Shown one piece after another: positions 6,847 to 34,183 of a stretch of 64,000 bases of DNA (positions within the stretch are counted from its first letter, which is position 1; every line of letters begins with the position of its first letter). The position numbers and the translations under genes are program-made. Origin of the DNA: an uncultured Chloroflexia bacterium (GTDB lineage: Bacteria; Chloroflexota; Anaerolineae; B4-G1; SLSP01); the NCBI GenBank assembly GCA_963751345.1, contig CAVVUS010000024.1, forward strand, positions 1 to 64,000, in the 5' to 3' direction. The notes under the pieces were generated by a model. The model saw only the letters and a list, made by a program, of their open reading frames with translations. It searched no databases and was not told the DNA's origin.

Positions 6847-9520
6847 CTAGCTGAGGACGTCCAGCAAGCGGAGGGCGCGTGCTTGAGCCACGGCCTGCGT
6901 GCGATTGCGCACGTCCAGTTTGCCGTAGATGTGGTTGAGGTGCGACTTGACCGTGCTCTCGGCGATGAAGAGCTTCTGGGCGATCTCTTGGTTCGTCAGA
7001 CCCTCGGCGACCAAGGCGAGGACCTCGCGCTCGCGCTCGCTCAGCGGCTCGATCAGCGGAGACTCTGTCTGCCCGACGCCGGGCCCTTCGCACATGTCTG
7101 CCAATCGACCCGCATAGCGTGACAACGCGGGGTCCTTGTCGGTCTGCGCAATGTAGCCCAGTAGGCCCGAGATGAACCGGCCCTGGCTCACGATCCTGCG
7201 GACAAAGCCCTCGGGCCTGCCCAGCTCGAGGGCCTCCCTGAGTGCAGCCCAGCGCAGAGGCCCTCTCTCCCTGGGCTGCAAGCAAGGCCGCCTGGAGGGC
7301 CAGAGCCTCGATGCGAGGGGCGACGAGGTCCCGGATCTCGGTCTGCGCCAGCAGTTCGGCCAGTACCTCTTGAGATGCCACAGACTGCCCGAGCATGAGA
7401 TGAAGTTTGGCACGCACCAATGCTTCTTCCTGCTCCAGGGGAGATGCCGCCGTAGGAGGAGATGCGGCCAGCCAGGTCTCTGCACTCGAGACACTGCCCT
7501 GCGCGAGCAGGAGCTCGCCCAGTGCCAGGCGAAGTGCCGCGGATGTCTGGGCATTTGCAGGCAGAGCCTCGGCTCGTTCCTGGGCCACCATCATCGCTTC
7601 CCGGGCTGCGTCGAGTTCGCCTCGGGCCGAGAGCACTCGCACCAACGTCGCGGTGTTGTAGATCTCCGATTCGGCACTTCCCCACTGCCTGCTGAGTTCC
7701 ACGCTCTGCTTGGCCTCCGCCAGGGCGCGATCGAGGTCGTTCCACTCATAGGCCAGATCCGCAAGGGCAGAAACCGCGCCCCCGGCGATCGGCAGCGGAC
7801 GTCCCGATTCGCTCGATCCCAGCGCCACAGCGTGGTTCGCCGTTGCCTGCGCCCGCCGTAGCTGCCCTTGCGCAAGCTCGAGCTCCGCCAGGGAGTTGAG
7901 CGCCGGCACCGCGACGTGCAGGTTACCGCTCTGCTGGCCGAGGGCCGCGGCCTCGGAGAGATCGTGCCGGGCCGCCTGGAGGTCCCCACGCAGCGTACCG
8001 ATCCCGCCCAGCACGAAGTGCACGACCGCCCGAATTCCCGCGTTGTCCTGCGACAGGGTCGCCAACGCGCGATCAGCCTCCTCAACTGCGTGCTTGACGT
8101 CCCCTTGCTGGGCCGCAGCATAGGCACGGATGGCCGCCGCTTGCCCGGCGAATTCCGCATCTCGTTGTGTTTCCAGAAGTCGCTCTGCCAGATCTGCACG
8201 TTCGATCGCGGCCTCAAGGCGCCCCGTCAGTAGCAGTACCCAGGCGTGGAGGAGGCAGAGACGGGCCCGCGCCTCCATCTGGGACGCGGGCAGGGCCGAG
8301 ATCCACCCCAGCAAGGAGCGGAGTTCGCCCTGCATCAGCAATCGCAGACCATGACGCTCGATGAGATCGGTGAGCCTCGTCAAGTCCTGGGAGGCAATGG
8401 CGTGGTGGATGGCGTCCTCCAAGAGGCCCTGCATCCTCATACCACCGGCTCGCCTCTCAGATGCAGGGGCGGCATCGCGTCACGGAAGCTTCACTTGGGC
8501 ACGAGCACGGAGCAGGTCGCGAAGAGGCGATGGTATCGGTACCAAATCCGGTAATCATCCAACGGCACCACGAAAAGATTCGTCTTGGTCAAGCTTCTCC
8601 AGAATGGACTGCGCGTCCGAACCCTCATGCGGCGCTGTCCCACCACGGCGTCGCACAACGGTCCACTCAGCCGGTCAAGAATGGACGTCTGCATGAGAAA
8701 GATTGGATCGCGGCGGCTGCAGATCCAGCACCTCCTCAACAAGATAGTCCAGGATGTACCGATGGGTGCCGGACAAGTCGCGTGATGACGGCTTCTGGGT
8801 CTCCGTGGTGCTGCAGCGATAGGGCCGCCATCTGCAGCCCCGTGACCCACCCTTCAGTGCGCCGTTCCAAGCGCGTGACCGGCCGCTCCGAAAGGCTGAG
8901 CCCCATGGCTTCGCTGAAGAAGCGGCAGCCTCGTCGGCAGTGAAGTGCAGATCGGCACTGCGTATCTCGACAAGTTGGTTTCGCGCGCGGAGCCGGGGTA
9001 GGGGAAACGGCGGATCCGCCCGCGTGAGAAGAGGAAACGTACGGCGGCAGCGAAGCCTCCAGCAGATCGATCACGACATGATGGACACTTCGAGTTCGAG
9101 ATCTCGTGATAGTCATCCAGTACGACGATCAGGGGTTTGGCTGCCGTCGTGAGATGGCTGCCAGATCGTTAATCAGCAGGGTCGAACACGGACACGGGTG
9201 TGACTTGCGGCGAGGTCAGTGCGTCCGCGTGGTCTCGCCCAGACCAGGCACCGCCTCGCGGCAGGCCGCAACCGGATAGGCGAGGAACCGCACAGGATCA
9301 TTGTCTTGGAGTCGAGGGAGAACCACGCTGCACGGACGTCCCGTCCGCAAGCCACGCGCCGACAGCGTCGTCTTCCCATAGCCGGCGGGCGCCGCGACCA
9401 GACCTAGCTTTCGACCCGCCTCCTTGAGCCATCCAGCGTCCCAGGAGTCGTTGTCGCTGATACTAGGTTCTCTCGCACCAGCGGGGCCAGAAGCTTCGTC
9501 TTCAACAAGAGCGAGACCAT
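6847..9520 (-). CDS. MalT-like (STAND ATPase-TPR-LuxR HTH) transcriptional regulator, heavily frameshifted
   Basis: N-terminal LLKTKLLAP, LERRTEGWVTGLQMAAL, WYRYHRLF, EDAIHHA, C-terminal EPLSEREREVL...TVKSHLNHIYGKLDV. Confidence 0.85.
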
Positions 9521-9665
9521 GGTTTCTCCAGCATCACCTTAGCACACCCGGGAGACCCAAACAACGTGGGCCGGGTTCATCGCACGGAACCCTCCCTGCG
9601 TCAGCTAAGCTGATGCCCCCTCGACGGTTTGCCATCCGCTGTGACTAGACGTCCTCGCTGCGTGC

Positions 9666-10674
9666 TCAATCGTCGGCAGCACTCCCGTAGATGCTTCGCA
9701 GTCCCCTGCTGATGGTGCCCGCCAGCACCGAAATATGGGTCTCATCCTCGAAGACGTGGGTCGTGAGACTGAGGCCCGGGTAAGCGCGTCCCTCAAGCGC
9801 CTCTGCGAGATCCAACACGTTCTTTACAGTCGACGATCCCTCTAGTGTGCCAACGGCCATGTAGACCCGAGCGGCCAGATCTGTATGCTCGGATGCGTAC
9901 TTCTCCTCGAACTCGAAGGATAACGCGGCCGTCCCACCAGATCGATGGGCTGGCGATGATGTACCGGTCGAAGGTGTCGGGCAAGGTGAACATCGTGTAG
10001 AGGCTGAACAGCCCGCCAAACGAATGCCCCAAGAACGCGGAGTCCTGAGGGATAGTGCGATAGTCGGTGTGGATGACAGGCACAAGTTCCTCGCGTATGA
10101 ACCTCAGAAAGCCGCCTGCCCTGCCGGAGCTGGGAAAAGAAAGCTCTCCAGGGATCCCCACGCCCGCGTTGTAGTACGTAGGCGTGAAATCGCCTGTCCT
10201 GCGGTTCATAATCTCATCCCTGCTATCCGTAGGATAACCGATCCCAACGATCAATAGATCGGGCAGTTCGCCCGCATCGGCCAGCCCGCGCGCGATCTCC
10301 GTCACCATCCCGAAACTGGCATTTGCATCCCCTGCGAAGAGCACAGGATAGGCAGTGCTGGAATCGCCATAGCCGCGGGGAAGGGCGACATAAATCCTAT
10401 AGCTTCTGCCGACAATCGCGGAAGCCAGGTCGAAAACCTCTGTGTTGGCAAGAGTGACAGGAACCTTACCCAGGGACACAGGGGGCATCGGTAGCTCGGT
10501 CGGCGCAGCTCCCGCCAATGTAGGTGGAAGCGCAGTGGACGTGGCCGCTGGCGTCGGTGCCCCTGTTGGCTCACTCCCGGTCTTCGTCACACATGCCGAC
10601 GGCAGCAAGAACAGCACCGCGCCGCCCGACAATTCCAGAAACCTACGCCGTGACATCCCTTTAGCGTTCCGCAT
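9666..10674 (-). CDS. Tat-exported lipoprotein alpha/beta hydrolase (IroE/BesA-like esterase), frameshift ~9920
   Basis: SRRRFLEL Tat motif, lipobox-like PSAC, Pro/Thr linker, GHSFGG nucleophile, ASPSIWW, C-terminal ETH. Confidence 0.82.
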
Positions 10675-27150: not shown

Positions 27151-27207
27151 GGCGGCGAATTTGACCGCGCATTACGTACAGAGGGAATCAAGGACGAGAA
27201 AGAAACC

Positions 27208-27770
27208 GTGGACCCTCACCGATCCTACCGTCGCATCGGCATGATCGCCCGCTGGCGGCCCGTCCATCTGGGACAGGTGCCCGTGCTCCGTGGGCTCTGC
27301 GACCACGCTGACTACGCCCTGATCGGTATCGGCAGCGCCAATCGCTACAACGCGCGCAACCCCTTCACGGTCGAGGAGACCGCCGATATGATCCGCCTGG
27401 TGCTCCGACGGCCGAGCAACTACACGCTGTCCCTGTGGACGACCTCGACGACGGCCCCCGTTGGCGCGCGATGGTCGTCGGGATCTTCGGCCCGCTGGAC
27501 GCCTTCGTCACCGCCAACCCGTATGTGGCCGGCCTGTTGAAAGACGACTACCCGATCCTCCGCCCGGTCGCGCTCGTGCCGACAGAGGACCGCGTCCGTA
27601 TTGACGGCACGATGGTGCGCCGCGCGATGGCCGGAGGCGATGCCTGGACCGACCTGGTCCCAAATGAGATAGCGGCTTACATCAAAGAGCACCGGCTCGA
27701 CGAGCGCTTCCGCCGCGAGTTCGGCTTGGAAACCCTGGCAATGGAGACGGTGCTGGATGTTGGAGGATGA
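27208..27770 (+). CDS. NMN adenylyltransferase-like cytidylyltransferase (NadM type), frameshift ~27430
   Basis: ARWRPVHLGQ (variant of GRFQPxHxGH), IGIGSAN, RNPFT, TANPYV, IDGTMVRR...W..LVP. Confidence 0.8.
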
Positions 27771-27909: not shown

Positions 27910-28868
27910 TATGTATACCTGGGATGAGGACACCAGCGGTTGGTACGGCGCCGCGAAGTACAGGTACGGCACGACCGGCGCGGAGCGCCGGCGCGGCGGC
28001 GACAAGGGCAGCGGCAGCGGCCCGCGGACCTAGCCGAGGAAAGGTGGCCCGAACGAGAAGATCATCGACCCGCGCAAGCGCATCACCACGGGATCGCCCA
28101 ACCCGCTGATCATCGCCGTCGACGTGACAGGCTCGATGGCCAGCTGGCCGCCGAGATCTTCGACCGGCTGCCCCTGCTCTACAACACGCTCGTCCAGTAC
28201 CGCCCCGACCTGGAGATCTGCTTCGCCGCCATCGGCGATGCGGCTGTCGACCAGTGGCCGCTGCAGGTGACGACCTTCGCCAGCGGCTTCGATCTGGAGC
28301 AGCTTCTGGGTTCGCTCTACGGCGAGGGCGGCGGCGGCGACGCGCCGGAAAGCTATGGCCTCTTCGCCCATTGGGTCAACACCCACGTCACGATTCCCCA
28401 GACCGCCGAGACGCCCTTCCTGATCGTCTTCGGCGATGCGCCCATGCACCCCACGATTCCCCAAGAGCAGATCGCCCACTACCTGGGCGACAACATGAGC
28501 CGGGACGTCGACGCCTTCGAGGCCTGGCAGACGCTCAGCAAGCGATGGAACATGTGGTTCCTCCGCCGTCCCACCGGCAGGCCGGGCGATCGCGTGGACA
28601 AGCAGTGGGCGCAGGCCATCCCCGAGCAGAAGATCTTCCACATCCAGGACGAGCAGCGCGCCGTGGACTACGCGATGGGCCTTATCGCCCGCGCCTGGGG
28701 TCACTTCGGGGACTTCCAGGAGAACATGCGCGCCCGCCAGAGCGAGGACAAGGTTGCCGAGGTCAGCGGCTGATCGAGCTCAAGTGCCCCCGCTGCGGCG
28801 CGCCCATCCCCGTCGACGCGCACGGGCTGTTCAAGTGCACCTATTGCGACGCGACGCTGAAGCTATAA
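27910..28868 (+). CDS. vWA-domain protein with C-terminal Zn ribbon, frameshifted
   Basis: RBS AAGGAGG; IIAVDVTGSM (MIDAS), AAIGDA, GEGGGGDAPESY, VFGDA; tail CPRCGA...CTYC. Confidence 0.8.
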
Positions 28869-29758
28869 GACTCCACGCCATCGTCACCGCCCCACCTTAC
28901 GCGCCCTTCCTGGAGGAGGTGGCGCGGCATCCCATCGTCTCGGGGCTGCGGCTCAACACCGTGATGCCGCTGCGCGAGGGGCCGGAGGAGGCACTGGCGC
29001 GGCTCTCCGCCCTCGGGCAGCCGCTCTGGGTCGATCTCAAAGGCCGGCAATTGCGCGTGGTCGGCGCCGCGATCCCGCCCTACTCCGAGGTACGACTGAG
29101 CCATCGCATCAGCGTGCGAACGCCGGTGGACGCCTTCTTCTCCGACGGCACCGAATGCGTGCGCGTCGCTGCCGTCGACGGCGACCGGTTGATCCTGGAG
29201 GACGGCCCCCGGCGCCTGGTCGGGCCGGGCGAATCCGTGAACATCGTCGACACCTCGCTGCAGATCGAGGGCACGCTGACCGAGACGGACCGAACGTACC
29301 TGGCCGCGATGAGATCGCTCGGTCTGAAGCGCGTGATGCTCTCCTACGTCGAGAGCCCTGCCGATGCGAACGAAGTGTGCGATCTGCTCCCTGGCGCGGA
29401 GGTGATGCTGAAGATCGAATCCGAGAAGGGCCTGGCCTACGCGCGCGAGCATGGTGCGGCGCAGGGTCGCCTGATGGCGGCGCGCGGCGACCTCTACGTC
29501 GAGGTGCTGCGCCCGCACCGAATCGTCGGCGCGCTGCGAGACATCGTCACTGCCGACCCCGACGCCGTGGTCGCCAGCCGCATCTTCGACTCGCTGGCAC
29601 GCCATCCGGTGCCGGAGAGCGCCGACATCGGCGACGTGGCCTTTCTGCTGAGCCTTGGCTACCGGACCTTCATGCTCGGCGACCACGTCTGCTTTCAGCG
29701 CGACGCCGTGCTGGAGGCGCTCAACCTGCTGGAAGCCGTCGCAGGGCAATTCCCGTAG
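28865..29758 (+). CDS. Minimal pyruvate-kinase-like enzyme (barrel and B domain, no C-terminal regulatory domain)
   Basis: RLN, DLKGRQLR, LSYVES, KIES, ARGDLYVE, ASRIFDS, ADIGDV and MLGD align in order with PK motifs; apparent start is ATA overlapping the vWA stop. Confidence 0.8.
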   Translation: MRLHAIVTAPPYAPFLEEVARHPIVSGLRLNTVMPLREGPEEALARLSALGQPLWVDLKGRQLRVVGAAIPPYSEVRLSHRISVRTPVDAFFSDGTECVRVAAVDGDRLILEDGPRRLVGPGESVNIVDTSLQIEGTLTETDRTYLAAMRSLGLKRVMLSYVESPADANEVCDLLPGAEVMLKIESEKGLAYAREHGAAQGRLMAARGDLYVEVLRPHRIVGALRDIVTADPDAVVASRIFDSLARHPVPESADIGDVAFLLSLGYRTFMLGDHVCFQRDAVLEALNLLEAVAGQFP

Positions 29759-29771
29759 GCCGATCCTCACG

Positions 29772-31303
29772 ATGAAGATCGCGCTCGCCCAGATCAACAC
29801 CACCGTCGGCGACCTCGCCGGCAACGTGGCGCGGTGTCTCGACGCCATCCACGAGGCCGGACGCCAGGGGGCCGACCTGGTGGTGCTGCCGGAGATGGCG
29901 ATCCCCGGCTACCCGCCGCGCGACATCCTGCTCGACACCAGCTTTGTCGACGCCGTGGGCGAGGCGACGCAGGACTTGGCCCGCCGCGCGGCGGGCGGCC
30001 CGCCGGCCCTGGTCGGCACCGTCGTGCCCAGCGGCGCGACGACGGTCAAGCATCCCGGCCTCTACAACGCCGCCGTGCTTCTCCGGGACGGCGAGGCCAC
30101 GATGGCAGCCGCCAAGCGCCTGCTCCCGGCCTACGACGTCTTCCTCGAACCGCGCTGGTTCGTGCCCGGTCCGCCATCGGCGCCGGTGACGATTGCGGGC
30201 CGGCGCGTGGGCGTCCTGATCTGCGAGGACATGTGGGACGAGAGCTACCCGGTCCACCCGCCCGCCGATCTGCTGGCGGCGGGCGCGGACGTGCTCGTAG
30301 CGCTCGCCGCCGTGCCCTACCGGCAGGGATCATGGACGAACGCCTCAACCACGCGCGGCGCCCCGGCTGCCCCCTGGTGCACGTCAACCTCTGCGGCGCG
30401 ACCGACGAGCTGATCTTCGACGGGCGCAGCTTCGCCGTCGATGCAGGTGGGGAGATCATCGCCCGACTTCCCGGCTTTGAGGAGGCGATCCGGGTCGTCG
30501 ATCTCGAAGCCGCCGTACCCCTCGCGCCGGAGGAGACCGACCTGCAGGAGGAGCGCTTCCGGGCGCTGACGCTGGGCATCCGCGACTTCGCGCGCAAGAA
30601 CGGCATCGCACGCGCCTTCCTGGGGCTCTCGGGCGGGGTCGACTCCGCCGTCGTCGCCGTCCTTGCCGCAGAGGCGCTGGGGCCTGCCAACGTCACCGCG
30701 GTCGCGATCCCCTCGCGCTACTCCGATCCGCGGTCCACCGAATGCGCGGAGGCGCTCGCGGGAGCGCTGGGCATCGGCTTCGAGGTCGTGCCGCTTGAGC
30801 CCCTGCACAGCGCTGCCGAATCCGCCCTCGGCCCGTGGCTGGACGGCACCGCCGCGGAGAACGTCCAGGCCCGGCTGCGGATGCTGATCCTGATGGCCCT
30901 CGTCAACCACCACGGCGGGATGCTGCTCAACACCAGCAACAAGACCGAGCTGGCGCTGGGCTATGGCACCCTCTACGGCGACCTGGCGGGTACGCTCTCG
31001 CCCATCGGCGACCTCACCAAGCCGCAGGTCTACGACCTCGCGCGCTGGATCCAGGCGACGCGCGGCGGCATCCTCCCCGACTTCGTATTGAGCCGCCCCC
31101 CCTCGGCCGAACTCAAGCCCGACCAGGTCGATCCCTTCGACTATCCCACCGTCGCGCCCGCGCTGGAGCGCCTCGTCCGCGCCAACCGCAGCAACGCCGC
31201 CCTCCGCCGCTCCGAGCACAAGCGCTGGCACCACGGCATCATCCTCAAGGTCAGCGAGAAAGCCTTCGGCACCGGCCGCCTCATCCCCGTCACGCGGCGG
31301 TAG
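29772..31303 (+). CDS. nadE: Glutamine-dependent NAD+ synthetase, frameshift ~30325
   Basis: KIALAQIN, LPEM, KRLLP, ICEDMW (glutaminase E-K-C); GLSGGVDS, ENVQARLR, TSNKTE, GYGTLYGD, PSAEL. Confidence 0.92.
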
Positions 31304-31470: not shown

Positions 31471-32312
<842 letters not shown>

Positions 32313-32379
32313 GCCGTTGCCCGGCATCTGCTATAATGGGATTGAGAATACGTTCGAAAAGCCGAAGCAGGCGATCCAC

Positions 32380-32948
32380 ATGACGACGCAGAGCGAGCGA
32401 ATCGCACAGCGGCAGGCACGCGCCAGGCAGATCGTGGCACGGATACGTGAGATTCTCCCGGCTGCACTCAAAGCACATCCCGTGGCCGCCGCCTACGTCT
32501 ACGGCTCCGTGGCACGCGGCACGCCCCTCCCGACGAGCGATCTCGATATCGCCCTGATCGCCCAGTCGCTGACCCTATCGCCATACGGGCAACTGACGCT
32601 GGAGATCAAAATCCAGGCGGACATCGAGGATGCCGCACGTACAGACATGGAAGTCGCCCGTGCAGATACGGGAGACGCATCCGTAGAGGCGACCGATGTT
32701 GACATACGGATAGGGAAGAGCGGATCTCCCTTCCCTCGGTCGATGTCCGAATCATCAACGGTGCGCCACTGCTGGTGCAGGGGCGCATCCTCCAGGAGGG
32801 CATATTGGTCTACGAGGGCGACCACCAAACACGAGTGAACTTCGAGGTAGCCACCCTGGGACGCTACTTCGACTATGCCCCTATTGCCAGGCGGCTTCAG
32901 CAGACCCTGCTGGATCACGTCCGCCGGGAGGGAATATTCCATGGTTGA
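32380..32948 (+). CDS. Minimal nucleotidyltransferase antitoxin (MntA-like), frameshift ~32735
   Basis: YVYGSVARG...SDLDIA (GS-x10-DxD); VDVRIINGAPL...ILQEGILVY in second frame; extended -10 TGCTATAAT upstream. Confidence 0.85.
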
Positions 32949-33383
32949 CCCAGCGCTCGTGTCCTCACGCATCAACCAACTCCGGGACTATCTGTCAAAG
33001 CTGCGCGTCCTGGCAGGTCTCAGTCCCGAAGACTTCGGCACGGACTTCAAGAACATCGAAAGCGCCAAGCACCTCTTACAGGTAGCGATTGCGTGCTGCC
33101 TCGATCTTGCGCAGCACATCATCGCGGATGCCGGCTTTCGCACCCCGAACGATTACTATGATGCGTTTGTGATCCTGTCGGAACACGATATCGTTCCGGT
33201 CGGCTTTCTACCGACGCTCAGGCAGATGGTCAGCTTTCGCAATCGCGTGGTCCACCTCTACTGGGAAGTCGACAGTGCGATGGTCTACCAGATCCTTCAG
33301 GAGAACCTGGTAGACTTCGACACCTACGTCGGCTACGTCCTGGACTACACCGAGGGAACCACAGGCAATCACCATCCGGCTGA
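32941..33383 (+). CDS. HEPN/DUF86 RNase toxin (HepT-like); 3' end approximate
   Basis: LQVAIACCLDLAQHII, FRNRVVHLY (R-x4-H-x-Y); overlaps the MNT stop. Confidence 0.85.
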
Positions 33384-33404
33384 CCGCCGATGGCTGACCG
33401 CTCC

Positions 33405-34183
33405 CTACTTCCCCATCGCCCGCAGCGCCTGCAGGCTCCGCGCCGAGACGTCGAAGCCGAAACCGTCCTCGTTGCCTTCCTCGACAACGTACCAGACCGG
33501 GTCGTGGAGCGTCTCGATAACGTCCCAGATCGTGTCCCAATCGGCCTCGCCCTCGCCGATAACCGTGCCCGGCCCGCCGCCGTAGTCCTTCAGGTGAATC
33601 GCCGCGCTCGGCCGGGGAATTTCCGCAGCATCGCGATAGGGTCGCCATCGCCCACGGCGCAGTTGCCGATGTCCATCTGCATCACGACGTCGTCGACCGT
33701 GTGGCTGAAGAGGATCTCCCAGGCCGTCTCGTCGCCGTGATAGACAAAGTCGAAGGGATGCGCGTGATAGCCGGTCCACATCCCCAGGGGCTTGAGCGTC
33801 TCCGCGGCGCGGTTGAGGATGTCGGCCAGTTCCAGCGTCGTGTCGAAGGTGCTCATCCGCTGCCTGTCCGCCGCGACGATCACGAAGTTGTTGCCCAGGA
33901 TCTGATTCAGCTCGATGGTGCGCTTCAGGTTGTCGCCCAGCAGCGCGCCCGTCGCCAGGTGCATACCGCAACAGGCCAGCCCGGCGTCGTCGAACATCGC
34001 GCGCATCTCCGTGGGCTGGTGCCCCATCCACGCGAGTTCGTCACCGGGATAGCCCCACGGCTCGGCGCCCTCGTATCCGATCTCCGCCACCGACCTGAGT
34101 GCGGCGGCGAGATCCTTCTGCACCTCGCTGCGCACTGAGTAAAGCTGCAATCCAACCGGCACCCGCTTTGCGCTCTCCGTCAT
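33405..34183 (-). CDS. Sugar phosphate isomerase/epimerase (TIM barrel), frameshift ~33600
   Basis: GLQLYSVR, GYHAH, QMDIGN, IHLKD, YVVEE. Confidence 0.85.

Follow-up and report, generated by a model that had tools for sequence, protein, structure and literature searches.

Known systems and how the locus compares

Pyruvate kinase (PK; EC 2.7.1.40; PykF, PykA, PKM), represented by the Pfam families PF00224 and PF02887 and the NCBIfam model TIGR01064, is built on an A barrel with an inserted B lid. A homologue of ~300 amino acids, termed here the mini-PK, is encoded in a 64,000-nucleotide stretch of DNA from an uncultured Chloroflexia bacterium (contig CAVVUS010000024.1, positions 1 to 64,000), the whole of which is referred to as the window. 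Its gene stands beside one for a von Willebrand factor A (vWA) protein, and both lie between two genes of nicotinamide adenine dinucleotide (NAD) synthesis. The explanation placed first here, tentatively, is that the mini-PK would be a dedicated generator of nucleoside triphosphates (NTPs) from diphosphates (NDPs), driven by phosphoenolpyruvate (PEP), with the lost allosteric domain replaced in trans by the vWA protein as an adaptor.

The mini-PK shares with canonical PKs the A barrel and B lid and the R, N, D, K, K-I-E and A-R-x-D residues, except that the catalytic-site Thr has become Ser. Beyond this the two differ. The mini-PK has no C domain, its B lid is ~20 residues shorter, it scores 42–53 bits against model cut-offs of at least 306, and it falls in a separate clade. 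Gln or Glu stands in for the lid Lys, and RxNFSHG, ATQ, and MLSGE have become RxNT..., ASR, and ML(G/S)D, respectively. It also comes with a vWA partner and is rare and horizontally spread. Of the traits by which a PK is recognised, the A domain and B lid are therefore present, whereas the C domain, a score above the TIGR01064 cut-off, grouping with PKs in a tree, and the lid Lys and FSHG are not.

A subgroup of PKs is independent of K+ and carries a Leu/Gln/Lys signature in the DTKGPEIR loop. The Leu after the Asp is common to the mini-PK and to the canonical PK of the same genome (GDLQGPKIR). However, the mini-PK keeps the Lys after this Leu (DLK) and has Arg-Gln where K+-independent PKs have Pro-Lys. 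By analogy, the Arg at the Pro position could serve as an internal cation. A second short protein is known from the PDB, the 321-residue 'pyruvate kinase' 8iw2_A, in which residues 16–318 match positions 18–300 of the mini-PK family profile (E 6.9e-18). It is short like the mini-PK, but its 67.7 bits are at the level of ordinary PKs and far below within-family scores. A literature search found no published description of 8iw2.

Combinations of vWA proteins with kinases are known from signalling. The TerY-P triad consists of a vWA protein, a Ser/Thr kinase, and a PP2C phosphatase, and the ArnB/ArnC/ArnD network of Sulfolobus is another case of kinase-vWA signalling. The locus resembles these in that a vWA protein with a metal ion-dependent adhesion site (MIDAS) is found beside a Hanks-type kinase in an archaeal locus (L039), in viral loci L051, L052, and L133, and in phage I3. 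It differs in that the bacterial genes come without a kinase, and in that the vWA protein is partnered by an enzyme of PK fold and by NAD or purine ligases. Neither a PP2C nor an FHA gene was seen beside the vWA/mini-PK pair. Metallophos genes are present nearby in L050 and L051.

Mobile NAD genes have been described as well. NARP1 and NARP2 are NAD+ reconstitution pathways. The genes in the window share with the phage salvage sets and NARPs their mobile, accessory nature, a NadM-type enzyme, and the presence of the vWA/mini-PK pair in huge phages. They are unlike them in lacking NadV/Nampt, Adps, Namat, and a Nudix fusion, and in using NadE and the deamido route. The phage NAD+ salvage sets use NadV together with NadM or NadR (PMC9503650), and in that paper the term 'pyruvate kinase' is absent and vWA is mentioned only for another system.

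In bacteria, the routes of NAD synthesis and salvage are considered completely charted, yet a highly conserved vWA/mini-PK pair sits inside NAD operons of several phyla. In these operons and in huge phages the pair is annotated only as 'pyruvate kinase' and 'hypothetical'. A search of the literature, with most subscription journals outside it, found no published description of the pair or of its NAD cassette. If the pair is a trans-regulated PEP-to-NTP generator, a separate adaptor protein can replace the allosteric C domain of PK. If instead the acceptor is new, the pair would add a step to NAD or nucleotide salvage and could bear on how cells or phages restore depleted NAD or ATP. In both cases, the label 'pyruvate kinase' should not be passed on through the family without scrutiny.

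The mini-PK and its family

The forward strand of the window is open in one frame from 28754 to 29758. Its translation contains RLNTVMP, DLKGRQLR, KIESEKG, ARGDLYVEV, ASRIFDS, and MLGDH, all in PK order, in agreement with the motifs listed in a preliminary description of the locus (RLNTVMP, DLKGRQLR, KIE, ARGDL, ASRIFDS, and MLGDH). That description placed the gene at 28865..29758. The PK-like gene is real, but the start requires correction since codon 28865 is ATA; this is where homology begins, aligned with the initiator Met of homologues. The probable start is the GTG at 28835, as in a 99%-identical database protein (P0001), or alternatively the TTG at 28844. Both candidates overlap the upstream vWA gene, the stop codon of which (TAA) occupies 28866–28868.

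The mini-PK matches PF00224 with 42.7 bits (E 4.9e-11) over profile positions 127–314 of 328. This is the sole Pfam family listed for the protein, with no match to PK_C (PF02887). Its best NCBIfam model is TIGR01064 at 52.8 bits, against a curated equivalog cut-off of 306.4, and the homologue from locus L026 scores similarly at 53.9 bits. The closest sequence of known structure is the PK 7oo1_A (E 7.1e-11); the other solved relatives are also PKs, with weaker matches. AlphaFold2 with a 36-row family alignment gave a model with a mean predicted local distance difference test score (pLDDT) of 96.1 and a predicted template modelling (TM) score of 0.93. The top Foldseek matches to this model were all PKs (E 7e-20, query-normalised TM 0.75–0.83), while the viral fold library BFVD returned only weak generic barrel matches. 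VIA-align superposed the model on 4ks0_A with Z 27.8 and a root-mean-square deviation of 2.7 Å over 279 residues. Model residues 1–297 map to residues 43–387 of PKM2, i.e. to the A and B domains only. In an alignment with the canonical PK of its own genome, the mini-PK ends where the A domain ends and has a B lid ~20 residues shorter. The mini-PK is therefore confidently predicted to have the PK fold. The proposed identification as a PK homologue without the C-terminal allosteric domain is borne out by Pfam, by this alignment, and by the structure prediction and superposition that had been suggested as a check.

In a full HMMER scan of 1.84 billion representative sequences, 118 clusters reached E<=1e-30, and at the looser threshold of E<=1e-10 there were 228. 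Nearly all listed full-length members of the 118 clusters are ~300 amino acids long. Among the matches listed by a word-indexed search, 120 proteins of 293–315 amino acids are 77–99% identical to the mini-PK; where a database name is given, it is 'pyruvate kinase' or 'hypothetical protein'. The vWA-associated mini-PK family is defined here by a length of ~300 amino acids, by a D-[LIV]-K-x-R-Q-L-R loop, and by a MIDAS vWA protein encoded next to the gene or elsewhere in its genome; the gene in the window has all three features.

The family is well separated from ordinary PKs. In 41 genomes sampled from the phylum, PF00224 has matches in 22, comprising 20 canonical PKs at 299–416 bits besides that of the window's own genome (G000), and one further match of 51.7 bits which is a cut fragment. 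Only G000 has an additional gene at ~42 bits. The mini-PK thus scores 42–53 bits on PK models where the 21 canonical PKs, including that of G000, score 299–416. A quick maximum-likelihood tree of 41 family members with 20 PKs, the latter all from Chloroflexota, is divided between the two groups by one long branch with an SH-aLRT (Shimodaira–Hasegawa-like approximate likelihood ratio test) support of 100. On this comparison with bona fide Pyk, which had also been proposed, the mini-PK is not nested among ordinary Pyk and by sequence belongs to a distinct family.

Relatives of the mini-PK occur at 38 genome loci. By genome label, amino acid identity is ~80% in Anaerolineae/Chloroflexota, 71–74% in Acidobacteriota/Holophagae, 63–70% in Polyangia/Myxococcota, and 64–67% in Alphaproteobacteria/Pseudomonadota, then 51% in Woesearchaeota and 49% in Thermoanaerobaculaceae. 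Identity therefore spans 63–93% across several bacterial phyla, with 49–51% in the two most distant loci. Against copies labelled Acidobacteriota, synonymous divergence (dS) of the mini-PK gene is 0.83–0.86, a value which strong bias in third-position GC content may depress; this points to a fairly recent transfer between phyla. Within the class of the source genome, the family profile matches only two of the 151 genomes sampled, G000 and G057. Both have an estimated contamination above 5% (5.64 and 7), hence the taxonomy and bin membership of the contigs carrying the cassette need care.

A ratio of nonsynonymous to synonymous divergence (dN/dS) of 0.13–0.26 against six homologous loci indicates that the mini-PK is under purifying selection. 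This bears on the idea that it is only a superfluous or decaying copy of pyk that lacks its own function, an idea prompted by the frameshifts in neighbouring genes of the window and by relatives that databases name 'pyruvate kinase'. A decaying copy would not be expected to show such constraint, 63–93% identity across phyla, an unbroken frame, and a separate clade. Moreover, the frameshifts are of a single-base type and also occur in the nearest related locus, L034, there including the PK-like gene, which fits assembly error. Decay is accordingly rated very improbable.

The NAD cassette

The mini-PK gene is the third of four genes in the window with the order NadM, vWA, mini-PK, and NadE (Table 1). 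When the region from 18 to 40 kb was compared in all frames with the 38 genome loci, a sharp block at 27.07–31.30 kb was common to 27–38 loci. The flanks match only one to a few loci, chiefly L034. Clustering all frames of the 38 loci yielded no fifth conserved gene.

Table 1. Genes of the cassette in the window
Feature	Coordinates	Strand	Evidence
NadM-type (archaeal-type) NMN/NaMN adenylyltransferase homologue, first cassette gene	27202..27770	+	NF002243/TIGR01527 on both pieces, tblastn
vWA protein with MIDAS motif and C-terminal CxxC...CxxC zinc ribbon	27911..28868	+	tblastn, AlphaFold2, Foldseek
Mini pyruvate kinase homologue, A barrel and shortened B lid, no C domain	28835..29758	+	Pfam, NCBIfam, AlphaFold2, Foldseek, tblastn
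Glutamine-dependent NAD+ synthetase (NadE; CN-hydrolase and NAD_synthase), last cassette gene	29772..31303	+	PF00795, PF02540, NF010588

Gene order was counted in 118 loci (38 from genomes, 80 from metagenomes), with only those of sufficient flank included for each gene: at least 1100 nucleotides upstream for vWA, at least 1900 upstream for NadM, and at least 1700 downstream for NadE. Upstream of the PK-like gene, vWA was present in 89/94 loci and NadM in 73/78, while NadE followed downstream in 60/73. All four genes were found in 46 of the 57 loci with enough flank. The link to NAD that had been suggested for the gene is thus upheld, since in most loci the PK-like gene lies between a NadM-type nicotinamide mononucleotide (NMN) adenylyltransferase and NadE; the vWA partner and the cassette as such did not figure in the preliminary description.

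An adjacent vWA gene is missing from five loci, all of Myxococcota type. Each of these genomes encodes the vWA protein elsewhere (518–534 bits), with NadM directly upstream of it in four of the five; the fifth locus is cut. In this type the cassette is split into NadM-vWA and miniPK-NadE. By these counts the mini-PK is strictly coupled in the genome to a MIDAS-bearing vWA protein.

Other departures from the standard arrangement were seen in single loci. In L038, a complete Anaerolineales chromosome, the PK-like gene (8001–10403) is split by an insertion of ~1.5 kb into pieces at 8001–8528 and 10047–10403. The NadE gene is also interrupted and there are extra open reading frames (ORFs), which may represent mobile-element damage to the cassette. 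In L004 (8987–9091) and L003 (4062–4160) the last 33–35 codons of the PK-like gene are present a second time, downstream of its intact copy. Unrelated genes follow the PK-like gene in L004, L003, L058, and L064; by eye these are short-chain dehydrogenase/reductase (SDR)-like, FAD oxidoreductase-like, and pterin-binding-like, and in L004 they lie between the PK-like gene and NadE.

No shared regulation or defence function emerged. An Rfam search at gathering thresholds of the window and five loci gave no match to a riboswitch or other RNA regulator, and the commonest 10-mer upstream of NadM occurred in only 8 of 75 such regions. When tested against PADLOC models, the cassette did not correspond to a known anti-phage defence system: four L026 proteins gave one chance-level match (E 0.0086), which falls in the zinc ribbon region. 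In sum, NadM-vWA-miniPK-NadE is best described as a rare, horizontally spread, accessory NAD cassette.

In L026 the cassette consists of four intact genes, encoding a 184-amino-acid NadM, a 320-amino-acid vWA protein, a 296-amino-acid PK-like protein, and a 511-amino-acid NadE. These were used as tblastn queries against the window. The mini-PK is a single unbroken piece (28865–29752, 82% identical to that of L026). NadM is found in two frames, as pieces 27214–27423 and 27429–27758 with the change near 27423–27429. The vWA gene lies in three (27911–28150, 28153–28764, and 28773–28865), with changes near 28150 and 28764–28773, and NadE in two (29772–30329 and 30326–31300), with the change near 30326–30329. 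The mini-PK alone is unbroken and the changes in the other three are all of the same single-base kind; L034 has similar breaks, its PK-like gene included. For this reason the frame changes in NadM, vWA, and NadE look like assembly errors of the long-read type rather than pseudogenisation.

The intact NadM homologue of L026 scores 83.5 bits against a cut-off of 127. Its HxGH motif reads HLGH, compared with HLGQ in the window (~27240–27260) and HNGG in the Woesearchaeota copy. The two NadE pieces of the window score 163 and 297.7 bits on NF010588, and the intact L026 homologue 471.4 bits against a cut-off of 479.

The 320-amino-acid vWA protein of L026 has no Pfam family above threshold, although it matches phrog_2971 (E 2.6e-19). 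Its AlphaFold2 model (pLDDT 84.4) has a vWA/integrin I-domain fold according to Foldseek (E ~2e-6), with matches to integrin I domains and to the A domains of von Willebrand factor. The MIDAS motif reads DVTGSM in homologues. An alignment of 17 sequences has 68 invariant columns, including D72, T74, S76, and D177. At the N-terminus M1, Y2, W4, W11, and Y17 are invariant and D7 and T8 nearly so, in a part of the model with pLDDT of 61–76.

The genome of the window does not depend on the cassette for a missing step, as judged from its other genes. It holds a second, better-scoring NadE (253 bits), a 519-amino-acid PncB-type nicotinate phosphoribosyltransferase, NadC (197 bits), and a NadD-like gene (61 bits, below the cut-off). 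The cassette is evidently accessory and not gap-filling in this genome. These data also bear on the proposal that vWA and mini-PK together replace PncB. The cassette comprises the last two steps (NadM and NadE) without an enzyme forming nicotinate mononucleotide (NaMN), so that the Preiss-Handler step is missing from it, and the Woesearchaeota locus additionally carries a nicotinamidase-like gene. However, the PK active site gives no hint of phosphoribosyl pyrophosphate chemistry. With PncB in its own genome, and matches to this PncB in four of the five other cassette genomes searched, the proposal was rejected as scarcely credible. In the Woesearchaeota genome the PncB match is on the same contig as the cassette.

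Archaeal and phage contexts

Outside bacteria the pair is found in different company. The Woesearchaeota locus L039 has, in order, nicotinamidase-like, radical-SAM, NH3-type NadE, NadM, Ser/Thr kinase, vWA, and mini-PK genes, followed by genes for a nucleoside hydrolase, a Nudix protein, an ADP-ribosylglycohydrolase, and an NAD-kinase-like protein. Three large viral contigs of 139–442 kb (L050, L051, and L052) also encode family members. The order in L051 is TelA-like, AAA ATPase, kinase, vWA, mini-PK, and PurA-like, and in L052 vWA and mini-PK lie downstream of a DnaJ-kinase gene, a few genes away from it. In L050 the mini-PK occurs with a PurA-like gene, and vWA is not adjacent. The 485-kb GenBank phage LR745208 encodes, in this order, a DnaJ-kinase, vWA, and mini-PK, with an ADP-ribosylglycohydrolase nearby. 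Overall, vWA adjoins the mini-PK in three of the four phage loci examined (L051, L052, and L133, not L050), and the order kinase-vWA-miniPK is found in L052, L133, L051, and L039. In P0170, one of the family members, the mini-PK is fused to a QueC-like PP-loop ATPase domain; a phmmer search of this fusion against the PDB at E<=1e-8 returned nothing.

Taken by itself, the vWA protein has relatives in 203 phage records, of which 200 are from Mycobacterium phages. Cluster-C-type mycobacteriophages such as Bixzunavirus I3 (L134, record positions 150646–154494) carry, in this order, genes for a kinase, the vWA homologue, a small ORF product, and a PurA-like protein annotated '2-aminooxy adenylosuccinate synthetase', with no PK-like gene.

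As the neighbours differ between bacteria, archaea, and phages while the pair recurs, the constant core is vWA plus mini-PK. Outside bacteria the kinase often accompanies it, and the clients are NTP-using nucleotide ligases.

This distribution could also mean that the main role of the pair is in signalling or as an adaptor. The hub would then be the vWA protein, possibly phosphorylated by the neighbouring Ser/Thr kinases and binding NadM, mini-PK, or PurA-like enzymes. The mini-PK in turn would sense the vWA protein or act on it, for instance through PEP-dependent protein phosphorylation or PEP sensing, and would carry no metabolic flux. The vWA protein is indeed the constant element, accompanied in I3 by kinase and PurA-like genes with no mini-PK and recurring in the 203 phage records. 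The Myxococcota-type split into NadM-vWA and miniPK-NadE agrees with this, as does the vWA N-terminus, which combines invariant residues with a pLDDT of 61–76 as a docking or modified peptide might. Nonetheless, the full PK catalytic set is kept, including the Ser/Thr and acid positions for enolpyruvate protonation, which most simply means real PEP turnover. The bacterial cassette also comes without kinase or phosphatase, and a purely signalling role is considered improbable.

Active site and phosphoryl acceptor

Residue conservation was counted in an alignment of 41 family members. In the RxN motif R29 is present in 41/41 and N31 in 40/41, and in the DxK...R loop D57 in 40/41, K59 in 41/41, and R64 in 40/41. 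The KIE motif has K183 in 40/41 and E185 in 41/41, and the ARxD motif Arg in 37/41 and Asp (D209) in 40/41. S238, which corresponds to the Thr of ATQ in PK, is found in 39/41. From the rabbit-muscle structures, we take these to be the PEP/pyruvate, Mg2+, and proton-transfer residues of PK. By this alignment the mini-PK keeps the residues that bind PEP/pyruvate and Mg2+ in PK, and the preliminary view of a retained PEP and metal side holds throughout the family, with R29, N31, D57, K59, R64, K183, E185, D209, and S238 each in 39–41 of the 41 members. Its counterpart, a remodelled acceptor side, is likewise consistent across the 41: the lid Lys has become Gln or Glu, FSHG is lost, and R61, Q62, R239, Y266, and D273 are new. 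The change from DTKGPEIR to DLKGRQLR is also present, although its Thr-to-Leu part is not unusual. The canonical PK of the same genome has it too (GDLQGPKIR). As it is the signature of K+-independent PKs, this part alone does not point to new chemistry.

The favoured explanation remains the generation of NTPs. With PEP as donor, the mini-PK would phosphorylate an acceptor of nucleotide type, in the simplest case ADP or GDP to give ATP or GTP. The NTP would then serve the accompanying ligases, i.e. NadM and NadE in bacteria, PurA-like enzymes in phages, and, in one relative, the PP-loop ATPase to which the mini-PK is fused. The vWA protein, which in archaea and phages has a Ser/Thr kinase beside it, would substitute in trans for the lost C domain, whether as regulator or as adaptor. 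This explanation is preferred because the only property common to the neighbours (NadM, NadE, PurA-like, and PP-loop ATPase) is that ATP or GTP is spent on nucleotides.

Several points weigh against it. The position of the KGVN lid Lys, which in rabbit PK contacts the nucleotide phosphates, is Gln in 19/41 members, Glu in 18/41, and Lys in none. The His of RxNFSHG is also lost, the FSHG positions being T/(G,V,A)/(M...)/(P,R). In their stead, R61, Q62, Y/F211, R239, Y266, and D273 (the last in 39/41) are newly near-invariant, and conserved Arg, Tyr, and Asp residues lining the site would suit another acceptor. The by-products of NadM and NadE are pyrophosphate and AMP, not ADP, so a PK-type regenerator would help them only indirectly. 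A plain ATP regenerator has, moreover, no obvious need of a dedicated vWA partner. Lastly, the genome already encodes a canonical PK (361.9 bits on PF00224), which is located on another contig.

The same changes are the basis for a non-NDP acceptor, which was the interpretation offered in the preliminary description. Here the mini-PK would be a PEP-dependent kinase of nicotinate or nicotinamide riboside, ribose phosphate, ADP-ribose, or a nucleoside monophosphate, with the vWA protein as regulator. The phosphorylated precursor would feed NadM and then NadE, or PurA-like enzymes in phages. The acceptor-side changes are family-wide, from the lid Lys to R61, Q62, R239, Y266, and D273, and D273 (39/41) could be the base for a hydroxyl acceptor. 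The order NadM-vWA-miniPK-NadE would give a linear route from riboside through NaMN and nicotinate adenine dinucleotide (NaAD) to NAD, and in L039 the pair lies among nicotinamidase-like, nucleoside hydrolase, Nudix, ADP-ribosylglycohydrolase, and NAD-kinase-like genes. Conversely, the phage pairs have a protein kinase only or PurA-like genes beside them, which an NAD-specific acceptor leaves unexplained; the acceptor would therefore have to be general. Of the five cassette genomes searched for the nicotinamide riboside importer PnuC, only one gave a match, which lends no support to riboside import. Positions 33–35, around the base pocket of PK, vary within the family, contrary to a new specific pocket, and we know of no PK-fold enzyme with such an acceptor. 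Of the preliminary interpretation, the PK homology, kept donor side, changed acceptor side, and NAD link all stand, while the non-ADP acceptor is ranked as a rival and thought unlikely, though a serious competitor.

The most far-reaching form of this idea is rated lower again, as distinctly unlikely. In it, the mini-PK would be the first PK-fold enzyme to phosphorylate something other than an NDP, whether a riboside, ribose phosphate, ADP-ribose, or a residue or ligand on the MIDAS of the vWA protein. Together with vWA it would form a new PEP-powered, signal-gated entry step into the rebuilding of NAD and adenine nucleotides, mobile among bacteria, DPANN archaea, and huge phages.

Other features of the genome and window

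The canonical PK of the genome (L001 1471–2826, contig C30) has a frame ending at 451 amino acids with an odd, non-homologous tail, suggesting a frameshift in its C domain. In the window, a homopolymer of ~55–60 A/T at ~32255–32330 (18–19 consecutive Lys or Phe codons, in three frames) lies just downstream of an FMN-reductase-like gene. The flanks of the cassette otherwise hold ordinary chromosomal genes and an MNT/HepT pair. This pair, two genes downstream of the cassette on the forward strand (32317–33582), encodes an MNT-type nucleotidyltransferase and a HepT-like RNase and is a probable toxin-antitoxin module.

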